Assembly (NCBI GenBank): GCA_913061095.1 | Contig: CAJXVM010000015.1 | Span: 8,870-72,869 of the forward strand | Length of the DNA stretch: 64,000 nt | Direction of reading: 5' to 3' | From: an uncultured Ignavibacteria bacterium | Lineage (GTDB): Bacteria > Bacteroidota > Ignavibacteria > SZUA-365 | Part shown: piece after piece, positions 12-10,722 of the stretch | Layout: every line of letters starts with the position of its first letter | Numbering within the stretch: the stretch's first letter is position 1 | Notes under the pieces: model-generated | Seen by the model: only the letters and a program-made list of their open reading frames with translations | Database searches by the model: none | What the model was told of the DNA's origin: nothing | Made by a program: the position numbers and the translations under genes

Positions 12-215
12 GTGACTGGATTTCGTATCCCGGGAATCCCATCGGCTGATTCCGTCACCCCTCGACAGGCTCAGGGTGACGGACTTCAGGCTCAGGGTGA
101 CGGACTTCAGGCTCAGGGTGACGGACTTCAGGCTCAGGGTGACGGACTTCAGGCTCAGGATGACGGAGCAGCAGTAACTGCACCGCCGACGCGCACCCCC
201 GTGCTTTGTCCGTGA
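12..215 (+). CDS. small repeat-containing ORF (67 aa) at the window edge; may be an artefact or the tail of a gene starting upstream
   Basis: An ORF sits on the tandem repeat. There is no recognisable domain. It converges on the UPF0182 gene end. Confidence 0.2.
   Translation: MTGFRIPGIPSADSVTPRQAQGDGLQAQGDGLQAQGDGLQAQGDGLQAQDDGAAVTAPPTRTPVLCP
66..170. repeat. 21-bp tandem repeat (unit ~gctcagggtgacggacttcag), about 5 copies, in frame with small ORF 12..215 and encoding AQGDGLQ heptads
   Basis: Direct reading: the unit recurs head-to-tail four times perfectly, with a fifth degenerate copy (ggctcaggatgacgga). The ORF translation shows QAQGDGLQAQGDGLQ... Confidence 0.8.
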
Positions 216-252
216 TGAACGGCAGCGAGGGATCCTGGGTCGGGGTTACAAA

Positions 253-2967
253 TTATTTGCTGCGATCCATCAGTTCTTCGAGCTCGCGCTGGAGTTTTTC
301 GATCTCTTCGCCGTAGCGGGCCCAGTCGCCGTCACGCTGCGCGCGGATGGCGGCGTTATAGGTCTCCATCGCCGAACGGGTGATGTCGCTCGTGCTGCGC
401 TCCTGCGCGATCGTTTCGGTTTCCGCCTCCAGAGCCTCCTCGGTGACGGTTTCTCCTTCCGGCGCCTGGCTGCGGAATACGCGCCGCAGGCTCTGCTCCA
501 GCGTCGGTTCCATCGCGAGACGGTTGTGATAGGCCACGATGACGCGCTTCAGCTCGGGCAGCTTGCCCGATGTCGCCTGCAGGTACACCGGCTGCACGTA
601 CATGACTTCCTTCTTGATCGGTATGACGAGCAGGTTGCCGCGGTACACGTTCGAGCCCTGCTGATTCCACAGCGTCAGCTGCTGCGAGATTTCGGGGTTC
701 TGGTCGATGCGGCCGGAGATCTGCATCGGACCGTAGATCAGCTCCTGCTTGGTGAATTTGTACACCAGCCGCTTGCCGTAATGCTCCCCGTCACTGCGCA
801 CGCAGAGCCAGGCGATCATGTTTTCACGCTTGTTCGGCGTGTAGGGAATCATCTGGATGAACTCCGCTTCGTCCTCCCCCGGCAGGCGCATGATGGCGTA
901 GTAGCTTTCCATCTTGACGACATTGTCCTGCAGCTTCTCGTTGGCGATGTTCCAGAGATCCTCCTTGTTGTAGAACACCTGCGGATCGACCATGTGGTAT
1001 GTCGCGAAGATTTCCGACTGAATGTCGAAGAGATCCTGCGGATAGCGCACATGGTTGCGGAGTTTCTCGGGAAGCTCCTCCTGGGTGAGAAACATGTCGG
1101 GGAAGATTTTGCTGTACACGCGGATCATCGGATCCGCATCCCTGCCGAACTTGTAAAACTTCGTTTCGCCGTTGTAAGCGTCGATGACCACCTTCACCGA
1201 GTTGCGGATGTAGTTGAAACCGGCGATCGGTTTGGAGTAAGGGTAATTGCTGCTGTAGGTATAGGCGTCGTAAATCCAGTACAGCCGCCCTCCGGCGACG
1301 ACCATGTACGGATCCTCGTCGAAGGCGAGGAAGGGCGCAATCTTGCGTACGCGCTCGCGGATGTCGCGGATATAAAGGATGTGGCTCTCCGGACTGATGT
1401 ATCCCGAGATGAGAATGTTCAGGTCGCTGAAGTGCATGGCGAAAATCAGGCGTCGCAGCAGTGAACCCACCGGCACACCGCTCTCTTCCTGATAGGTCGT
1501 CATCTGGTTTTCATCTCCCAGCGGATAGTCGAATTCCTCGATGTTGCCCTTGACGATGACGTGATTATCGGTCTCCTCGCCGTAGTAGATTTCTGGCCGC
1601 GTTACTTCCAACCCGTGTTCTGACGCAGGCGGGATGTCTTTGATGAAAAATTCCGGCAGCCCCTCCTCGGTGACCACGTTGACCGGACTCATCCCCAGCC
1701 CGTACCCGTGCGTGTACACCAGGTTCATGTTCACCCAGGTCTGCGCGTTGGTGGGGAGTTTGCGCTGGTCGAGCTCACGCGCGCTGAGCATGACCTGGCG
1801 CAGAGTGCCGTTGGGCAGACGGTAGCGGTCGATGTCCACGTCGGCGAAGGTGTAATAGAGGCGGATCACCTGAAGCTGGTCGAGCGTGCTGGCCAGCGGA
1901 CGGTAGTCCCACAGCATGATGTTGCGGATGGTGGCGCTGTCGGCCACGATGTCTTCGTAGGTCAGGTTGTATTGCGGATCGATGCGTTTTTCCTCGATGC
2001 TCTCGAGATCGTAGGCATCGCGCGTGTAGGCGATGTTGTTTTCGATGAATTGCAGTTCCTTGCTCTGCTCGTTCGGATCGACGATGAACTTCTGGATGAG
2101 CGACGGGAAGATCGAGCCGATGACGATGGCCGCGACGATGTAGCTCACGCCGAATTTCCCGAGCAGCTTGAAGTTGCGTCCGTACAGCGCGTACACGATC
2201 ACCACGGCGGTGACGATCGAGAGGATGGCCATGATCCAGTACGCGGGCAGCTGCGCGTTGACATCGGTGAAGCCCGCGCCGAAAAAGCTCGACGAGCGCG
2301 TGGAATACAGGATGTCGTAGCGGCTCAGCCAGTAATGAATGCCGATGAGCACCATGAGCGTGCCGAGCAGCACGGAGAGATGCTTGCGCGCCGCGGCGGA
2401 AATGGAAATGCGCCCGACGGCAAAGGATATCCCCTGCCGAATCATGTAGACGACCATCGTGGCGATGAGAATCAGCACGTTCGCACCGATGAGCCAGGAC
2501 TTCACCGCGTTGATGAAGGGCAGCTCGAAGAGGTAGAACGAGACGTCATTGGAGAAGATGGGGTCGGCGGTGCCGAAGGATTCGCTGTTGAGAAAGGCCA
2601 GCATATCCATCCAGCTGCCGCTGAGAAGTCCGGCCATGATGAACCCGAGGAACACCGCGCCGCCGTAGGCAAGCCATTTGATGGCCTTGCCGAAACCCTC
2701 GACGAATTGCTGCAGCCGCGGATCAACCGTGAGATTGGATTCCGACCGGAGCGCAATGCTCAGATTGAAGTTCGCCAGCAGCAGGAAGACGACGAAGCCC
2801 GCGAGCCAGAGGCTGTACTGGGCACTGTAGGTCTTCCAGAACACGCCGATATAGCCCAGGCTGTCGAACCACCACATGTCGGTGATGAAGGATGAAAAGA
2901 TGCCGAGAAGGATGATAATGCCGATGATCACCCCGACGGTGATCCCGATGGTACGTCTGGCTTTCAT
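253..2967 (-). CDS. UPF0182 family membrane protein (904 aa)
   Basis: N-terminal multi-TM region (MKARRTIGITVGVIIGIIILLGIF..., several hydrophobic helices) followed by a ~650 aa soluble domain. Size and architecture are typical of UPF0182/COG1615. Confidence 0.75.
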   Translation of the reverse strand: MKARRTIGITVGVIIGIIILLGIFSSFITDMWWFDSLGYIGVFWKTYSAQYSLWLAGFVVFLLLANFNLSIALRSESNLTVDPRLQQFVEGFGKAIKWLAYGGAVFLGFIMAGLLSGSWMDMLAFLNSESFGTADPIFSNDVSFYLFELPFINAVKSWLIGANVLILIATMVVYMIRQGISFAVGRISISAAARKHLSVLLGTLMVLIGIHYWLSRYDILYSTRSSSFFGAGFTDVNAQLPAYWIMAILSIVTAVVIVYALYGRNFKLLGKFGVSYIVAAIVIGSIFPSLIQKFIVDPNEQSKELQFIENNIAYTRDAYDLESIEEKRIDPQYNLTYEDIVADSATIRNIMLWDYRPLASTLDQLQVIRLYYTFADVDIDRYRLPNGTLRQVMLSARELDQRKLPTNAQTWVNMNLVYTHGYGLGMSPVNVVTEEGLPEFFIKDIPPASEHGLEVTRPEIYYGEETDNHVIVKGNIEEFDYPLGDENQMTTYQEESGVPVGSLLRRLIFAMHFSDLNILISGYISPESHILYIRDIRERVRKIAPFLAFDEDPYMVVAGGRLYWIYDAYTYSSNYPYSKPIAGFNYIRNSVKVVIDAYNGETKFYKFGRDADPMIRVYSKIFPDMFLTQEELPEKLRNHVRYPQDLFDIQSEIFATYHMVDPQVFYNKEDLWNIANEKLQDNVVKMESYYAIMRLPGEDEAEFIQMIPYTPNKRENMIAWLCVRSDGEHYGKRLVYKFTKQELIYGPMQISGRIDQNPEISQQLTLWNQQGSNVYRGNLLVIPIKKEVMYVQPVYLQATSGKLPELKRVIVAYHNRLAMEPTLEQSLRRVFRSQAPEGETVTEEALEAETETIAQERSTSDITRSAMETYNAAIRAQRDGDWARYGEEIEKLQRELEELMDRSK

Positions 2968-4857: not shown

Positions 4858-7155
4858 GTGATGGACAGCACAACGTTTCAGGTACTTCTCGTCGAGGAGC
4901 GCGAGGCCGATGCGGAACTCATCGGTGAAGCGCTGCTGCAGTGCTCACTGCCCTGTGTGGTGACGCATGTGCGGCGTCTTTCCGATGCGCTGGAGCAGAC
5001 CGTCAGCACGGAATTCGACATCGTACTGCTCGATCTGTTCCTCGGTGACAGCAGAGGACTCGACACGTTCGTGGCCATGCGCAGTTACGCGCCGCGTCTG
5101 CCGATGGTGCTGCTCACGGATTCGACGGCGATCGAGATCACCAGCGAGGCGGCGAAGAGGGGAGCGCAGGACATTCTCAACAAGGATGAGATCAGTCCCG
5201 CCGTGCTCGCAAAAACCATGCTCTACGCCATCGAGCGCAAGCGGCACGAGCTGGAGCTGCATCGCCAGAAGGAGTTTTACGAGAATCTTCTGCAGGAAGC
5301 CAATGTCTGGGTGGAGGCGCTCGACCGCAGCGGGAATGTCATTCTCTGGAATCGCGGCGCCGAGCAGATCTCCGGGTATCCCGCTCGTGAAATGATGCAT
5401 GGGCAGAAGCGCTGGGAAGTGCTGTATCCCGATGCCGTGCTGCGGGAGCGGCTGCTCGAGGAATACAGGATGTCTCTGCGGGAAGAGCGCAGCGTGGAAA
5501 ACGTGGAGACGGAAATCCACATCGCTTCCGGGGAGACACGCATCATGTCATGGAATTCCAATATCATCCGCGGGGCGGACGGCCGCACCGTGGGAATCAT
5601 GTTCGTCGGCAACGACGTGACCGAGCGGCGGGCGTCGGAGCAGGAAATCACCCGCAGCGAAGACCGCTTCCGCATCCTCGCGGACCTGACCTCGGACTAT
5701 GTCTATTCCGCGAGCTTCGACGGCGATTTCACGATCACGACGGAATGGGTGGAGGGCGCCTTCCAGCAGATCACCGGCTATGCCCCCGAGGAAGTTATCG
5801 GCAATCCCGGCGCCTGGGTTGCACTGATTCATCCTGATGACCGGTCGAGCATGGCGCGGATGCAGGATCAGATGGGGGAGCAGCATCCAGTCGCATTCGA
5901 ATACCGCATCCTGCTCCGCGACGGTCGCGTGCGCTGGCTGCGTGATCATATTTTCCCCATCATCAGCGACGATAACAGGGTGAAGGGGATGCACGGCGCC
6001 GTGCGCGACATCACCGAGCAGCGCGAAACGGAAATTTCCCTCATGAAGGAAGAAGAAAAGCTGCGCGGCATCATCGAAAATGCCGCGGATGGCATCGCGC
6101 TGATGAACGAGCAGGGCAGCATCATCGAGTGGAGTCCGGCCATGGAGCAGATTACCGGCATCCCGCGCATGGAGGCGATCGGCAGCATGCACTGGGAGAT
6201 CCAGCACCGGCTCGCGCTGCCTGAGGATCACGCCACGCGCGATGTGCGTGCGGAGACGCGCCGGCAGATAGAGGACTATCTCGCGAAAGGAACCTCCTCC
6301 TGGCTCAACCGCCTGTTTGACCGCTGGATTCAGCGTCCCGATGGCGAAAAACGCTATATCGAAATGGTTTCCTTCCCGGTGCGCAGTTCACAGGGACTAC
6401 TGACCGGCAGTGTGACGCGCGACATCACCGAAGTGAAACTTGCGGAAGTGGACCTGGAGAATAAAAACCGCCAGCTCGAGGAGCGCAACCAGGAGCTGGA
6501 TACGTTCACGCACAGCGTCGCGCATGATTTGAAAAACCCGCTCAGCCTCATCCTCGGATACGCGGAGATGGTGCAGTCGGAGAGCGATGCGCTGACAGCG
6601 GACGAACTGCGGGAGTACATGGGCAGCGTGCTTTTCAACGGCCGCAAGATGATTTCCATCATCAATGCGCTGCTGCTCCTGGCCAGTGTGCGAAAAGAGG
6701 AAGTGCTGCTCGAGGAGCTCGACATGCAGCAGATCGTCGAAGACGCCACGCGTCGTCTCCACCGCCTGATTGACGAGCAGGGAGCGACGGTGACACTGCC
6801 CGACCGCTGGCCGCCGGTGCTGGGCTATCCGGCGTGGATCGAGGAAGTGTGGGTCAATTACATCGGCAATGCAGTCAAGCACGGCGGCAAGGGGGTGCAG
6901 GTACACGTCGGTGTCGAGGAGGAGGGGGATATGGTGCGCTTCCTTGTGCGCGACAACGGGGCGGGCATTCCGCCGGATCGCATCAATGATCTGTTCACCC
7001 CGTTCGTGCGCCTGAGCCAGGCGAAGATCGAGGGACACGGTCTCGGGCTTTCCATCGTGCGGCGCATCATCGAGAAAATCGGCGGCACCGTGGGAGTGTC
7101 ATCGGAGCAGGGACGGGAAACGGTATTTTCATTCACGCTCAAAAGAGCATCCTGA
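4858..7155 (+). CDS. hybrid sensor histidine kinase with N-terminal receiver, multiple PAS domains, HisKA and HATPase_c
   Basis: N-terminal REC (VLLVEEREADAELI...ILLDLFLGDSRG). PAS-like segments. HisKA motif HSVAHDLKNPLSLI. HATPase motifs (NAVKHGG, DNGAGIP, GHGLGLSIV). Confidence 0.85.
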   Translation: MMDSTTFQVLLVEEREADAELIGEALLQCSLPCVVTHVRRLSDALEQTVSTEFDIVLLDLFLGDSRGLDTFVAMRSYAPRLPMVLLTDSTAIEITSEAAKRGAQDILNKDEISPAVLAKTMLYAIERKRHELELHRQKEFYENLLQEANVWVEALDRSGNVILWNRGAEQISGYPAREMMHGQKRWEVLYPDAVLRERLLEEYRMSLREERSVENVETEIHIASGETRIMSWNSNIIRGADGRTVGIMFVGNDVTERRASEQEITRSEDRFRILADLTSDYVYSASFDGDFTITTEWVEGAFQQITGYAPEEVIGNPGAWVALIHPDDRSSMARMQDQMGEQHPVAFEYRILLRDGRVRWLRDHIFPIISDDNRVKGMHGAVRDITEQRETEISLMKEEEKLRGIIENAADGIALMNEQGSIIEWSPAMEQITGIPRMEAIGSMHWEIQHRLALPEDHATRDVRAETRRQIEDYLAKGTSSWLNRLFDRWIQRPDGEKRYIEMVSFPVRSSQGLLTGSVTRDITEVKLAEVDLENKNRQLEERNQELDTFTHSVAHDLKNPLSLILGYAEMVQSESDALTADELREYMGSVLFNGRKMISIINALLLLASVRKEEVLLEELDMQQIVEDATRRLHRLIDEQGATVTLPDRWPPVLGYPAWIEEVWVNYIGNAVKHGGKGVQVHVGVEEEGDMVRFLVRDNGAGIPPDRINDLFTPFVRLSQAKIEGHGLGLSIVRRIIEKIGGTVGVSSEQGRETVFSFTLKRAS

Positions 7156-7222: not shown

Positions 7223-7657
7223 TCAGACGGATGTTCCATCCCAGCGATCCCGCTGAAATTCCATCCTGCATACCCAGTCCCCGTCGAAAAAATGACGCGC
7301 CTGGAAATCCGTGAACACGCGCAGTGATGCTGTGTCGAGTCCCATGAAATAGATCGGGATGACAGCGAATTTATCCCCGGCCTTGCGCAGCTGGTTGCGT
7401 GCGCCCTTGTAGCGTCCCACACGCTTGAGGTGCAATCCGGACGCGAGCTGGATCAGCGCGCGAATGAAGATTTCGCCGTCGTCGGAGGGACCATCACCCA
7501 TCGGCAGCCACGCGGCCTCCCAGGCCTCGTGGGCGTGCCAGTACCGCGCGCTGTTGAACAGGCGCACGCCCTCGCGGAAATCCGCAAGCTGTTCCGGCGT
7601 GAAATCCGGAGCGGTAATGTCGCTGATTTCGTCGGTGTCGCGTTTTCTCGGCGGCAT
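7223..7657 (-). CDS. DUF309 domain protein
   Basis: Characteristic FNSARYWHAHEAWEAAW motif of DUF309 near the N-terminus. 144 aa. Confidence 0.7.
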   Translation of the reverse strand: MPPRKRDTDEISDITAPDFTPEQLADFREGVRLFNSARYWHAHEAWEAAWLPMGDGPSDDGEIFIRALIQLASGLHLKRVGRYKGARNQLRKAGDKFAVIPIYFMGLDTASLRVFTDFQARHFFDGDWVCRMEFQRDRWDGTSV

Positions 7658-7678
7658 GAATTCCTTCGCGCTGCGGGA

Positions 7679-8068
7679 TTACTGCGAGGCGCCGGGATTG
7701 AGATCGCGCTGGCGGCGGGCGTCGATGAACGACTTGACGGCCATGACCACGAAGCCAAGCGTGAGCAGGGCCATGATGCTCTGCATGACAGCGGCGAAGG
7801 GACGCGCCACTTCCACGCCGCTGATCATGTCGATGACCGAGGAAATGCCGCGTGCCGAACCGGCGAAACCGATCAGGGCAAGCAGCGTGACGGCGTGCAT
7901 CATGTGCTTGCGCAGCTTTTCCTTCCGGCCGAGAAAACCGAGAATGATGACGGGAATGCCAAGAAAGGCGGGGATGAGCGCCGTGACACTTTCTCCGCCC
8001 GAGACGGCATATCCGACGACGCCGAGCAGTGTAAGAATGACGCCGAGTGTAATCGACAGCATGACCAT
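7679..8068 (-). CDS. small integral membrane protein (about 4 TM), function unknown
   Basis: 129 aa with four hydrophobic helices (ITLGVILTLLGVVGY, LIPAFLGIPVIILGFLG, AVTLLALIGFAG, IMALLTLGFVVMAV). Same strand as its neighbours and 21 nt upstream of DUF309. Confidence 0.5.
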   Translation of the reverse strand: MVMLSITLGVILTLLGVVGYAVSGGESVTALIPAFLGIPVIILGFLGRKEKLRKHMMHAVTLLALIGFAGSARGISSVIDMISGVEVARPFAAVMQSIMALLTLGFVVMAVKSFIDARRQRDLNPGASQ

Positions 8069-8138
8069 GAGTCTATCTCCGGATTCTTCGTGGTTTCGAT
8101 ATGAAGAGAGAACACGGGGAATGCCGCCCGGGGTTCCG

Positions 8139-8507
8139 CTACATGAGTCCGTATGAATTAAGCAGTCGTTTCACAAGTTTCATCCGCATGGTCCAGAAAC
8201 CGGAGAGATCCTGGTCATTGAGGGTTTCAATATTGAGCGCGAATGCGTACACGCGATCGCCGCGTTCGAGATATCCCACCAGCCACCCGACCAGTCCATC
8301 CCCGCGCAGGACCGTGCCGGTCTTGCCCCGCAACGTGTAATCCGGCGTCTCCTCGAGCAGCATCAGTTCCTTTACCGCGCGCTGCGCGTCGGAGGAAAAC
8401 GGCAGTTCCTCGTTCCACAGCCGGCGCAGGAAGGTGATCTGCTGTTCTGGAGTGATGCGCAGCGCGCCGTCGAGCCAGAAGCGGTCAATTCCACCGCCGA
8501 TGCGCAT
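8139..8507 (-). pseudogene. class D (OXA-type) beta-lactamase C-terminal fragment; lacks the N-terminal two-thirds including the STFK active-site serine
   Basis: MRIGGGIDRFWLDGALRIT...RGKTGTVLRGDGLVGWLVGYLERGDRVYAFALNIE closely parallels the OXA-10 stretch ISGGIDKFWLEGQLRIS...HSKTGFSG...[21 protein letters not shown] (KTG box and W-x-x-G elements). Similarity stops exactly at an ATG 9 nt after the dipeptidase stop. The upstream in-frame residues are the dipeptidase C-terminus read out of frame. Confidence 0.7.
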
Positions 8508-8515
8508 GAGAAAAC

Positions 8516-9577
8516 CTATGTCTGCGGAGCGGATGCGGTGAAGACGGTGCGATAGAGCCGGAGGGCGTTGCCGCCGAGGATGCCCGCGAGATGCTCGTCG
8601 CTGAAACCGCGGCGGGCGAGGGCGTCGATGAATACGGGCAGATGCGCCACGTCTTCCGCGCCGGTGACGAAGTTGAGCAGATCGGTGGGCAGGTCGTCGC
8701 GCAGCAGCCACTGCTGCATGGCGTCCATATAGTAATCGGCGTAATCGGGACCGAGGGCGAGGCATTCAGATCCCGCGATCCCGGCGATGTGCTCGGCGTG
8801 GTCGGCCAGACGGTCGGGCGTGGCCTTCGTGCGGTCGTCGTCGATGAACATTCCGAGAAAATTGAGGCCGATCACGCCGCCGCGCTCGCCGATCATGCGA
8901 ATCTGCTCGTCGGTAAGATTCCGCCGGTGCCCGCAGAGCGCGCGGGCGTTGGAATGCGAAACCATGGGAGGAAGATCGTAGAGGTCGATGGCGTCGAAGA
9001 AAGACGGATCGGAAAGATGCACGAGATCCAGCACCATGTTGAGCGCGCGCAGCTCGCGGACGATCTCGCGTCCGAAGTTGCTCAGTCCGCCGGGTTTCGG
9101 TTCTGCGCAGCCGTCGGCGGCGAGATTGCGTTCATTGTGCGTGAGGATGACCGATCGGAGTCCCGCCGCATGCAGTGCGCGCAGTGTGGCAACATCCTCC
9201 ACGCAGCGTATGCCCTCCAGCGCGAACATGAAATGCATACCATCGCGGGCCGCGGCGCGATCGATATCCTCCCCTTCGAGCATGAGATGGAATTCCCCGT
9301 GGGCGTCGATCTGCCTGCGCGTCGCGTCGATGATGCGCAGCACCAGGCGCAGATCCCACAACTCGAGCGTGCCGATTTCGAAATCCCCGCCGACGGTGAG
9401 CACCTCCGCGTTCACACCGCCCCGGCGCAGCAGCGGCAGGTGCTCGGCGAAAAGGGCGTCGTCGCGTCCCTCCTGCGCGGCGCGGTACAGCTGGATGGCG
9501 TAATCGGAGTGCACGTCCGCGACGGGATGCGCGGCGAGGAGTTCGAGCAGGGACTGCGGGATGTCGATGTCGTTCAC
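8516..9577 (-). CDS. membrane dipeptidase, peptidase family M19 (renal-dipeptidase-like)
   Basis: VADVHSDYAIQLYR (H-x-D metal site), FALEGIRCVEDV, VILTHNERN and C-terminal GGNALRLYR are typical of M19. The start is set at GTG 9577 preceded by AAGGAG. The 124 Arg-rich residues upstream in the ORF track are judged out-of-frame junk. Confidence 0.8.
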   Translation of the reverse strand: MNDIDIPQSLLELLAAHPVADVHSDYAIQLYRAAQEGRDDALFAEHLPLLRRGGVNAEVLTVGGDFEIGTLELWDLRLVLRIIDATRRQIDAHGEFHLMLEGEDIDRAAARDGMHFMFALEGIRCVEDVATLRALHAAGLRSVILTHNERNLAADGCAEPKPGGLSNFGREIVRELRALNMVLDLVHLSDPSFFDAIDLYDLPPMVSHSNARALCGHRRNLTDEQIRMIGERGGVIGLNFLGMFIDDDRTKATPDRLADHAEHIAGIAGSECLALGPDYADYYMDAMQQWLLRDDLPTDLLNFVTGAEDVAHLPVFIDALARRGFSDEHLAGILGGNALRLYRTVFTASAPQT

Positions 9578-10722
9578 GGGAGGTCTCCTTTCAGGTGGAG
9601 CGAGTGTGCGGTGCCGGCGAGATGATCGGCGGGGGTGCCGTCGAGTGTGAGATAGCCGCGCATGCACTGCGCGGTGAGGCAGGAATGCACGGGCAGGATG
9701 CCGATGAGCGCGCCCTCGTGCAGCAGCGCGATGATCTCGTCGGTGCTGCGGATGACGCCGTGTTCCTGCGAGATGGAAACGACAGCCGTGTCGGGGATTG
9801 GTGCGGACCAGCCGTCCTCGGTGAGCAGAACGACTCGTCCGTACATAGGGCTGCCGTCTTCCCCCGGGAGTGCATCTTTCGACAGATGCACGCTGCCGCC
9901 GTGCACCACCGCCTCGCGGCGTTCGGGATGCATCGCCACGACGGGACATACAGTGGCGACGGCGATGTCTTCCGGATCGCAGATGCCGAGTGCCGCCTGC
10001 ATGATGTCGAAAAACACGAAGTTGCCCGGACGGATTTCGTCGATACCGGTGAAATCTTCGGCGAGCGCGCAGCCGGGCGTGTCGCCGACGGAAACGATGG
10101 CATCCGGGTGCCGCCGACGGATGTGTCCGGTGGCTTCAATCAGCCGCGTTCTTGCAGTGTCGAAGCGGCGGCGGACGTCATCGGGTCCGGCGGCGTGATA
10201 GGTGTCGCCGCCGTGCGTGATGGTGCCGCGGAAATGCAGGCGCGGTGCGGCATCGATCACATCGAGAATCGCATCGATCGCCGCGCGGTCATCCCAGCGC
10301 ACGCCCGTGCGTCCGTATCCCGCGTCGATCTTGATCGAGACCGCGACCTCATTGCGCAGCTTCTCGTCGAGCTGCCGGGCGACGGCGGGTGATTCCACCA
10401 GGAGTCCCAGTCGGCACGCGCCTGCGAGGCGGTCCACCCGCGCCGTCTCGCGCGGATTGTGCGGGAAGGCGATGGTGATATCCTTCCACCCGTCCGCTGC
10501 GAAATATTCGGCCATCAGCACCGACGAGACGGTGATCGCCTCCGTGCCGGCATCGCGCAGCCAGGCACCGACCCGGCGGGACTGATGCGTTTTGAAATGG
10601 GGGCGGAAGGCGAGACCATGTTCGCGCGCGCGCTCGGTCATGCGCGCGATGTTGCGGCGGCATTTCCGCTCGTCGAGCAGAAGCACGGGGGAGGTGATGT
10701 CGGGAAAGGGCATCGTCGCCAC
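9574..10722 (-). CDS. D-serine dehydratase-like / D-threonine aldolase-like PLP enzyme (alanine racemase N-domain, DSD1 family)
   Basis: N-terminus PVLLLDERKCRRNIARM...GLAFRPHFKTHQS (PLP-lysine motif of the DSD1/D-threonine aldolase family). C-terminal D-ser_dehydrat-like region. The stop overlaps the dipeptidase GTG start by 4 nt. Confidence 0.75.
   Translation of the reverse strand: MATMPFPDITSPVLLLDERKCRRNIARMTERAREHGLAFRPHFKTHQSRRVGAWLRDAGTEAITVSSVLMAEYFAADGWKDITIAFPHNPRETARVDRLAGACRLGLLVESPAVARQLDEKLRNEVAVSIKIDAGYGRTGVRWDDRAAIDAILDVIDAAPRLHFRGTITHGGDTYHAAGPDDVRRRFDTARTRLIEATGHIRRRHPDAIVSVGDTPGCALAEDFTGIDEIRPGNFVFFDIMQAALGICDPEDIAVATVCPVVAMHPERREAVVHGGSVHLSKDALPGEDGSPMYGRVVLLTEDGWSAPIPDTAVVSISQEHGVIRSTDEIIALLHEGALIGILPVHSCLTAQCMRGYLTLDGTPADHLAGTAHSLHLKGDLP

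Follow-up and report, generated by a model that had tools for sequence, protein, structure and literature searches.

The window, by which we mean the whole 64-kb stretch of DNA that was analysed, contains a same-strand cluster coding, in this order, for a D-Ser-dehydratase-like PLP enzyme, an M19 dipeptidase, a remnant of a class D β-lactamase, a 129-aa membrane protein and a DUF309 protein (Table 1). The GTG start codon of the dipeptidase gene shares 4 nt with the stop codon of the gene upstream, and its own stop codon is the TAG at 8518..8516. The mechanically predicted open reading frame (ORF) at 8516..9949 overstates this gene, since it continues for 124 codons upstream of the GTG at 9577, covering the 3′ part of the preceding gene, an extension for which there is no homology support.

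Table 1 Features of the class D β-lactamase locus in the window
Feature	Position	Strand	Remarks
PLP enzyme, Ala_racemase_N and D-Ser-dehydratase domains	9574..10722	(-)	First gene of the cluster; assigned by domain matches
M19 membrane-dipeptidase-family gene, intact, 353 aa	8516..9577	(-)	Upstream neighbour, untouched by the deletion
8-nt spacer, dipeptidase stop to ATG	8508..8515	(-)	Native bla 5′ leader kept: GTTTTCTC; L006: GTTCCCTC
Remnant ORF, 122 aa plus stop	8139..8507	(-)	C-terminal half of class D β-lactamase, from the first residue after YGN to the native C-terminus
Deletion junction ATG-CGC-ATC	8499..8507	(-)	Breakpoint resolved to about 3 nt
Omega-loop Trp codon, W11 in FWLDG	8475..8477	(-)	Aligned to OXA-48 W157
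KTG box, residues 62-64	8316..8324	(-)	K62-T-G64 aligned to OXA-48 K208-T-G
129-aa membrane protein, function unknown	7679..8068	(-)	Conserved downstream neighbour, synteny anchor
DUF309 protein, 144 aa	7223..7657	(-)	Last gene of the conserved cluster

The ORF between the genes of the dipeptidase and the membrane protein starts with an ATG (8507..8505), ends with a TAG stop codon (8141..8139), and encodes a product of the sequence MRIGGGIDRFWLDGALRITPEQQ...RGKTGTVLRGDGLVGWLVGYLERGDRVYAFALNIE...SYGLM. The product matches Pfam PF00905 (E=7.5e-13) at profile positions 142-282 of 299 only, and NCBIfam NF012161 (bla_class_D_main; E=9.5e-33) at profile positions 119-235 of 236 only. The best solved structure is 6nhs_A, residues 147-258 of 259 of which align to the ORF with E=1.3e-28; residues 149-245 of OXA-48 (3hbr_A numbering) align with E~1e-22. 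In the structure alignment, residue 1 of the ORF is the position immediately after Y-G-N, and 122 of the about 259 residues of a class D protein (47%) are kept. FWLDG, KTG and GWLVGY are all found in this half. The STFK motif with the Ser70 nucleophile and the carbamylated Lys73 is not part of the ORF, which begins past YGN, and SxV and YGN both fall in the deleted segment. The product likewise shows neither a hydrophobic leader nor a recognisable signal peptide, its predicted N-terminus reading MRIGGGIDRFW. As criterion for a functional class D β-lactamase, we used a whole-protein score at or above the curated NF012161 cutoff of 250 bits; the ORF scores 113.4 bits and is below it.

The initial annotation had described the ORF as the remnant of an OXA-type class D β-lactamase with partial domain coverage and without STFK, SxV and YGN, which is borne out by the alignments to PF00905, NF012161, 6nhs_A and OXA-48; the NF012161 match is the opposite of the failure to align with class D enzymes that it had named as possible counter-evidence. 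It had also spoken of the C-terminal third of the enzyme. The piece is indeed C-terminal, but amounts to half of the protein.

A one-genome-per-species scan with the dipeptidase yielded two orthologous loci, L005 and L006, located in MAGs labelled Bacteroidetes bacterium and Ignavibacteria bacterium, respectively, and aligned sequences of the 129-aa protein, used to scan metagenomes, led to the further loci L011, L012, L013 and L014. The order of the genes for the D-Ser-dehydratase-like enzyme, the M19 dipeptidase, the β-lactamase, the 129-aa membrane protein and the DUF309 protein is common to the window and four related genomes. The full five-gene cluster is seen in L005 (1..3590), while L006 (1..2600) and L012 (1..2217) begin inside the dipeptidase gene and show the last four genes only. 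The dipeptidase encoded in the window is 74%, 69% and 77.5% identical to its orthologues from L005, L006 and L012, respectively. At the position of the 122-aa ORF, between dipeptidase gene and 129-aa gene, the same three loci contain full-length class D genes coding for 260 aa (L005), 258 aa (L006) and 259 aa (L012), as the initial annotation had suggested might be found in related genomes. Each of these enzymes has a hydrophobic N-terminal leader and the motifs PASTFK, SCV, YGN and KTG, and their NF012161 scores of 252.2-270.2 bits are over the cutoff of 250. In L011, the β-lactamase gene can be read from PASTFK, with SCV and YGN present, the rest being cut by the contig edge. The remnant is thus of class D by descent, being orthologous to the full-length genes at the syntenic position in L005, L006 and L012, and because such a gene is found at the same position in relatives, the 5′ half of bla is understood to have been lost from the window. 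As reconstructed from these loci, the ancestral cluster consisted of dipeptidase, full-length bla, 129-aa protein and DUF309 protein.

Two of the loci depart from this arrangement. In L014 (140..1847), a relative of L005, a DDE_5 transposase gene (140..1444) adjoins a stub of the orthologous bla gene that comprises no more than its last 64-68 codons, and homology to L005 begins abruptly at YGKTG; to judge from this arrangement, the truncation in L014 arose independently and is associated with an insertion sequence (IS). In the L014 contig, the transposase gene is preceded by about 140 nt, and that stretch shows no bla or dipeptidase homology. In L013, the genes of the 129-aa and DUF309 proteins are present, and bla and the dipeptidase gene are both absent.

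Some further features of the neighbourhood were observed. Between the stop codon of the remnant and the first codon of the 129-aa gene lies a 70-nt spacer (8069..8138). It is well conserved in comparison with L005 and L014, following the pattern GCGGAACCC.GGGC...CCGTGTT...CTTCAT...GGAGA.TAGA.TCATGG, and may contain an internal promoter or a regulatory site acting on the genes that follow. On either side of the remnant, nothing promoter-like and no convincing terminator-like site was found, and an Rfam search of the window gave no matches. A hybrid histidine kinase encoded at 4858..7155 (+) is without a 127-aa PAS module that is found in its L005, L006 and L012 orthologues. The gap lies after residue 541 (nt ~6481), between two similar linker repeats (E-x-KNRQL ... 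EEQNxQLKERNQEL). It is the second in-frame deletion of domain size in this lineage, at a distance of about 1.7 kb from the bla remnant. Within the cluster (7223..10722 (-)), a D-amino-acid enzyme and a renal-dipeptidase-family enzyme are paired with a β-lactamase, and this combination of genes hints at a link of the β-lactamase to the metabolism of D-amino-acid peptides or cell-wall fragments.

Comparison with the orthologues places the junction of the deletion to within about 3 nt. Its left side, ATGCG, is found again where the native bla gene of L006 begins (ATGCGA...), and its right side, from ATCGGCGG onward, is the post-YGN segment of all orthologues, the four of which read YGN-x-x-ATCGGCGGCGG(A/C)AT(A/C)GACCG... 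at this point. The window has kept the native 5′ leader (TAGGTT..CTCATGCG); leader and start read CATAGGTTTTCTCATGCG in the window versus GATAGGTTCCCTCATGCG in L006. The minus-strand sequence of the window across the junction is ...CAGACATAGGTTTTCTCATGCGCATCGGCGGTGGAATTGACCGC..., and that of L006 at the native bla start is ...CAGATAGGTTCCCTCATGCGATATATCG.... The net loss amounts to 136-137 codons, or about 0.41 kb. In L006, an internal Met directly follows YGN (YGN-M-S-IGGG).

Upstream of its ATG, the frame of the remnant is free of stop codons for another 86 codons, which overlap the 3′ part of the dipeptidase gene (mechanical 208-aa ORF, 8139..8765), again without homology support. An extension of the bla frame up to 8576, obtained by tblastn with the L006 enzyme, comprised ~4 identities in 25 residues, i.e., noise, and was discounted because this DNA belongs to the dipeptidase gene, whose 3′ end is conserved. 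The initial annotation had placed the end of homology exactly at the ATG, 9 nt after the dipeptidase stop codon; the boundary and the adjacency of the two genes hold, the spacer being 8 nt long (8508..8515). It had further interpreted the boundary as a rearrangement junction. Since the gene order on both sides is as in the relatives and the native leader is kept, the sequence instead identifies the event as a simple in-frame deletion within the gene, both flanks having stayed where they were.

The identical junction is present in contigs from at least five independent metagenomes (ERZ508512, JGI 3300026968, 3300000920, 3300001235 and SRR6201715), which are 99.6-99.99% identical to the window and stem from three data providers; the carrier contig of ENA ERZ508512 has a length of 430 kb, and that of SRR6201715 was obtained from Logan. 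The same 122-aa protein, or a V66A variant of it, occurs with identical neighbours across independent assemblies, and contig L036, which starts with ccgcagacataggttttctcatgcgcatcggcgg, has the same junction as well. The carriers are one near-clonal, species-level population, and the truncation is fixed among the sampled contigs. An abrupt boundary of homology close to the stop codon of a neighbouring gene could arise from metagenome mis-assembly or a chimeric join at about 8500-8520, an assembly error that the initial annotation had considered for 8500–8520. Recurrence of one junction in assemblies that are independent of each other, come from five samples and three data providers and include the 430-kb contig, excludes such an error, as does the collinearity of the flanks with those of the relatives, and the probability that the truncation is an artefact is next to nil. 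An event on a larger scale, by which the N-terminal half was moved elsewhere or the fragment was imported from another site, has a precedent of sorts in L014, where an IS transposase gene adjoins a 3′ remnant of the orthologous gene. In the window, however, both neighbouring genes and the native leader occupy their ancestral positions, and no mobile-element genes (IS, integrase), notable repeats or compositional breaks were found around the remnant site. Moreover, tblastn with the full-length orthologues did not find an N-terminal bla half elsewhere in the 64-kb window, which also rules out a split gene within this stretch. A larger rearrangement or mobile-element event is therefore exceedingly doubtful.

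Both distribution and divergence have a bearing on whether the 122-aa product is a retained functional protein. An exhaustive phmmer search over 1.84 billion representatives gave one match at E<=1e-30, a 266-aa full-length enzyme with 60% identity. Among the matches listed, there are also many class D proteins of 132-138 aa, which for the most part begin at a conserved Met in the interior of the enzyme, about 10 residues ahead of YGN. Short catalogue proteins of this kind (P0016, P0021, P0029, P0030, P0034, P0039 and others) are labelled ‘class D beta-lactamase’. Ten short matches were looked up. Each is known from a single contig, which in nine cases measures no more than 5.7 kb, and two fall into the same 90% clusters as full-length proteins of 269 and 272 aa. 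A conserved short family made up of the 132-138-aa matches was rejected on these grounds. The nine proteins from contigs of at most 5.7 kb probably are partial gene calls, and P0030, which is encoded on a 128-kb contig, may be another genuine truncation. A conserved stand-alone half-OXA family was thus not found among the 1.84 billion representatives, with ten short matches checked.

Over the 120 columns shared by the sequences, identities are 63% for window and L005, 64% for window and L012, and 62% for L005 and L012. At sites that are invariant in the other four sequences, the window shows changes at 4 of 47, as compared to 4/47 in L005, 3/46 in L006, 0/43 in L012 and 10/53 in L011. Neither the relative-rate nor the invariant-site comparison with the orthologues revealed accelerated divergence of the remnant, the frame of which is still open over 122 codons and which has kept every family-conserved residue of that half. 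As far as these alignments allow a statement, the deletion happened recently compared with the length of the long terminal branch, or else the fragment is under constraint; unaccelerated divergence is also what purifying selection would produce. The remnant and its counterpart in L004, from the same population, differ by one synonymous and one non-synonymous substitution, a comparison that has no power in a population that is 99.6-99.99% identical. Between the orthologues, saturation of dS is to be expected, given an amino-acid identity of about 63%.

These observations bear on the proposal that the in-frame deletion was selected and the product retained as a functional cytoplasmic protein, either as a neofunctionalised half-domain (a ligand-binding, decoy or regulatory module) or by way of translational coupling to the downstream genes. 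The intact ORF, the native initiation region, the deletion being in frame, the lack of an excess of conserved-site substitutions relative to intact orthologues, and fixation of the short form in all sampled contigs would all fit. An in-frame outcome is, however, expected by chance in one of three deletions, and an open frame together with unaccelerated divergence is what a recent deletion in a genome of 60% GC should show anyway. The short form is confined to one population of >99.6% identity, every sufficiently covered relative has a full-length gene, and no conserved stand-alone family emerged from the 1.84 billion representatives. The fragment also lacks the N-terminal strands and helices which complete the class D fold as well as the acylated serine and, having no signal peptide, could not meet periplasmic β-lactams. 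We consider such a function very unlikely. That the deletion created a stable, expressed 122-aa cytoplasmic protein, which would then be a nascent gene rather than a decaying one, appears very improbable indeed. The expressed decoy or sensor-like fragment offered as an alternative in the initial annotation has no positive support from the data, given the missing signal peptide and acylated serine and the absence of a conserved stand-alone family; the related genomes contain full-length genes instead of the conserved standalone short ORF which it had set against its own reading as a remnant. That reading agrees with the presence of a full-length class D gene at the same position in relatives and the confinement of the short form to one near-clonal population.

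We therefore regard the ORF, with a probability of about 0.88, as a non-functional, pseudogene-like remnant of an intrinsic chromosomal class D β-lactamase gene, left by one in-frame deletion. In the proposed course of events, the ancestral bla gene would have been situated in the conserved same-strand cluster, between the genes of the M19 dipeptidase and the 129-aa membrane protein. A single in-frame deletion, beginning directly behind the start codon and ending directly behind YGN, would then have removed the signal peptide, the nucleophilic Ser and the carbamylated Lys of STFK, SxV, and YGN. The ATG present in the window may be that of the original start, or may descend from a Met codon inside the gene such as that in YGN-M-S-IGGG of L006. 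In the latter case, both ends would have shared (C)ATG(CG), a short microhomology that may have mediated the loss. The deletion would be young compared with the divergence from the nearest sampled relatives. Because the remnant is located inside an operon and its initiation region is intact, it probably is still transcribed, and perhaps translated. The predicted product would be cytoplasmic and would lack the catalytic half of the fold; considering the established mechanism of class D enzymes, it could neither acylate nor hydrolyse β-lactams. The remnant cannot be an active β-lactamase.

The uncultured Bacteroidota/Ignavibacteria-like clade carries an intrinsic class D β-lactamase flanked by an M19 dipeptidase and a small membrane protein, and its gene has been lost or broken in at least three ways, by in-frame deletion (window), IS-associated truncation (L014) and absence (L013). 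As judged from these loci, the class D gene evidently is dispensable in the clade, the three modes of loss indicating that it is not required in some habitats. Automatic pipelines label fragments like the one described here ‘Transpeptidase’ or ‘class D beta-lactamase’, and they could be miscounted as resistance determinants in metagenome resistome surveys. In practice, fragments of this type should be kept out of counts of resistance genes. A literature search for an analogue retrieved papers that mention truncated class D genes, with no directly relevant one among those consulted.

When compared with class D (OXA-type) β-lactamases, the remnant shows homology across the whole C-terminal half, including the omega-loop Trp in FWL(D/E)G, KTG, the GW.VG strand and the C-terminal helix, with identities of up to about 57% to catalogued proteins and of 63-64% to its own orthologues (L005, L012). 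The nearest named class D subfamily by score is the OXA-1089 family (NF040804). In contrast to these enzymes, the remnant is devoid of about 53% of the protein, comprising the signal peptide, STFK with Ser70 and Lys73, SxV, and YGN.

The class D fold also serves as the β-lactam sensor in BlaR1/MecR1. The remnant does match the C-terminal part of the BlaR1/MecR1 sensor domain (NF000326; 71 bits, profile positions 469-565 of 585), but scores lower than against class D enzymes, and it has neither a transmembrane or M56 zinc-protease domain nor an acylatable serine. Its orthologues are stand-alone secreted enzymes, and the gene upstream is an M19 dipeptidase gene with its own stop codon. A blaI/mecI partner was not found near the remnant, and the remnant cannot act as a BlaR1-like sensor.

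Truncated bla genes (delta-bla) occur in chromosomes as well as in integrons and plasmids, where deletions or IS events have left them behind. Like these, the remnant is a partial β-lactamase ORF that keeps one end of the gene and is not expected to confer activity, and L014 represents an IS-associated case of the same kind. It differs from them in that the case in the window is a clean, in-frame internal deletion with the native start region kept, and in that it occurs in the chromosome of an uncultured environmental bacterium rather than in a mobile resistance context. The finding is an ordinary pseudogene-like remnant and not a new kind of protein.
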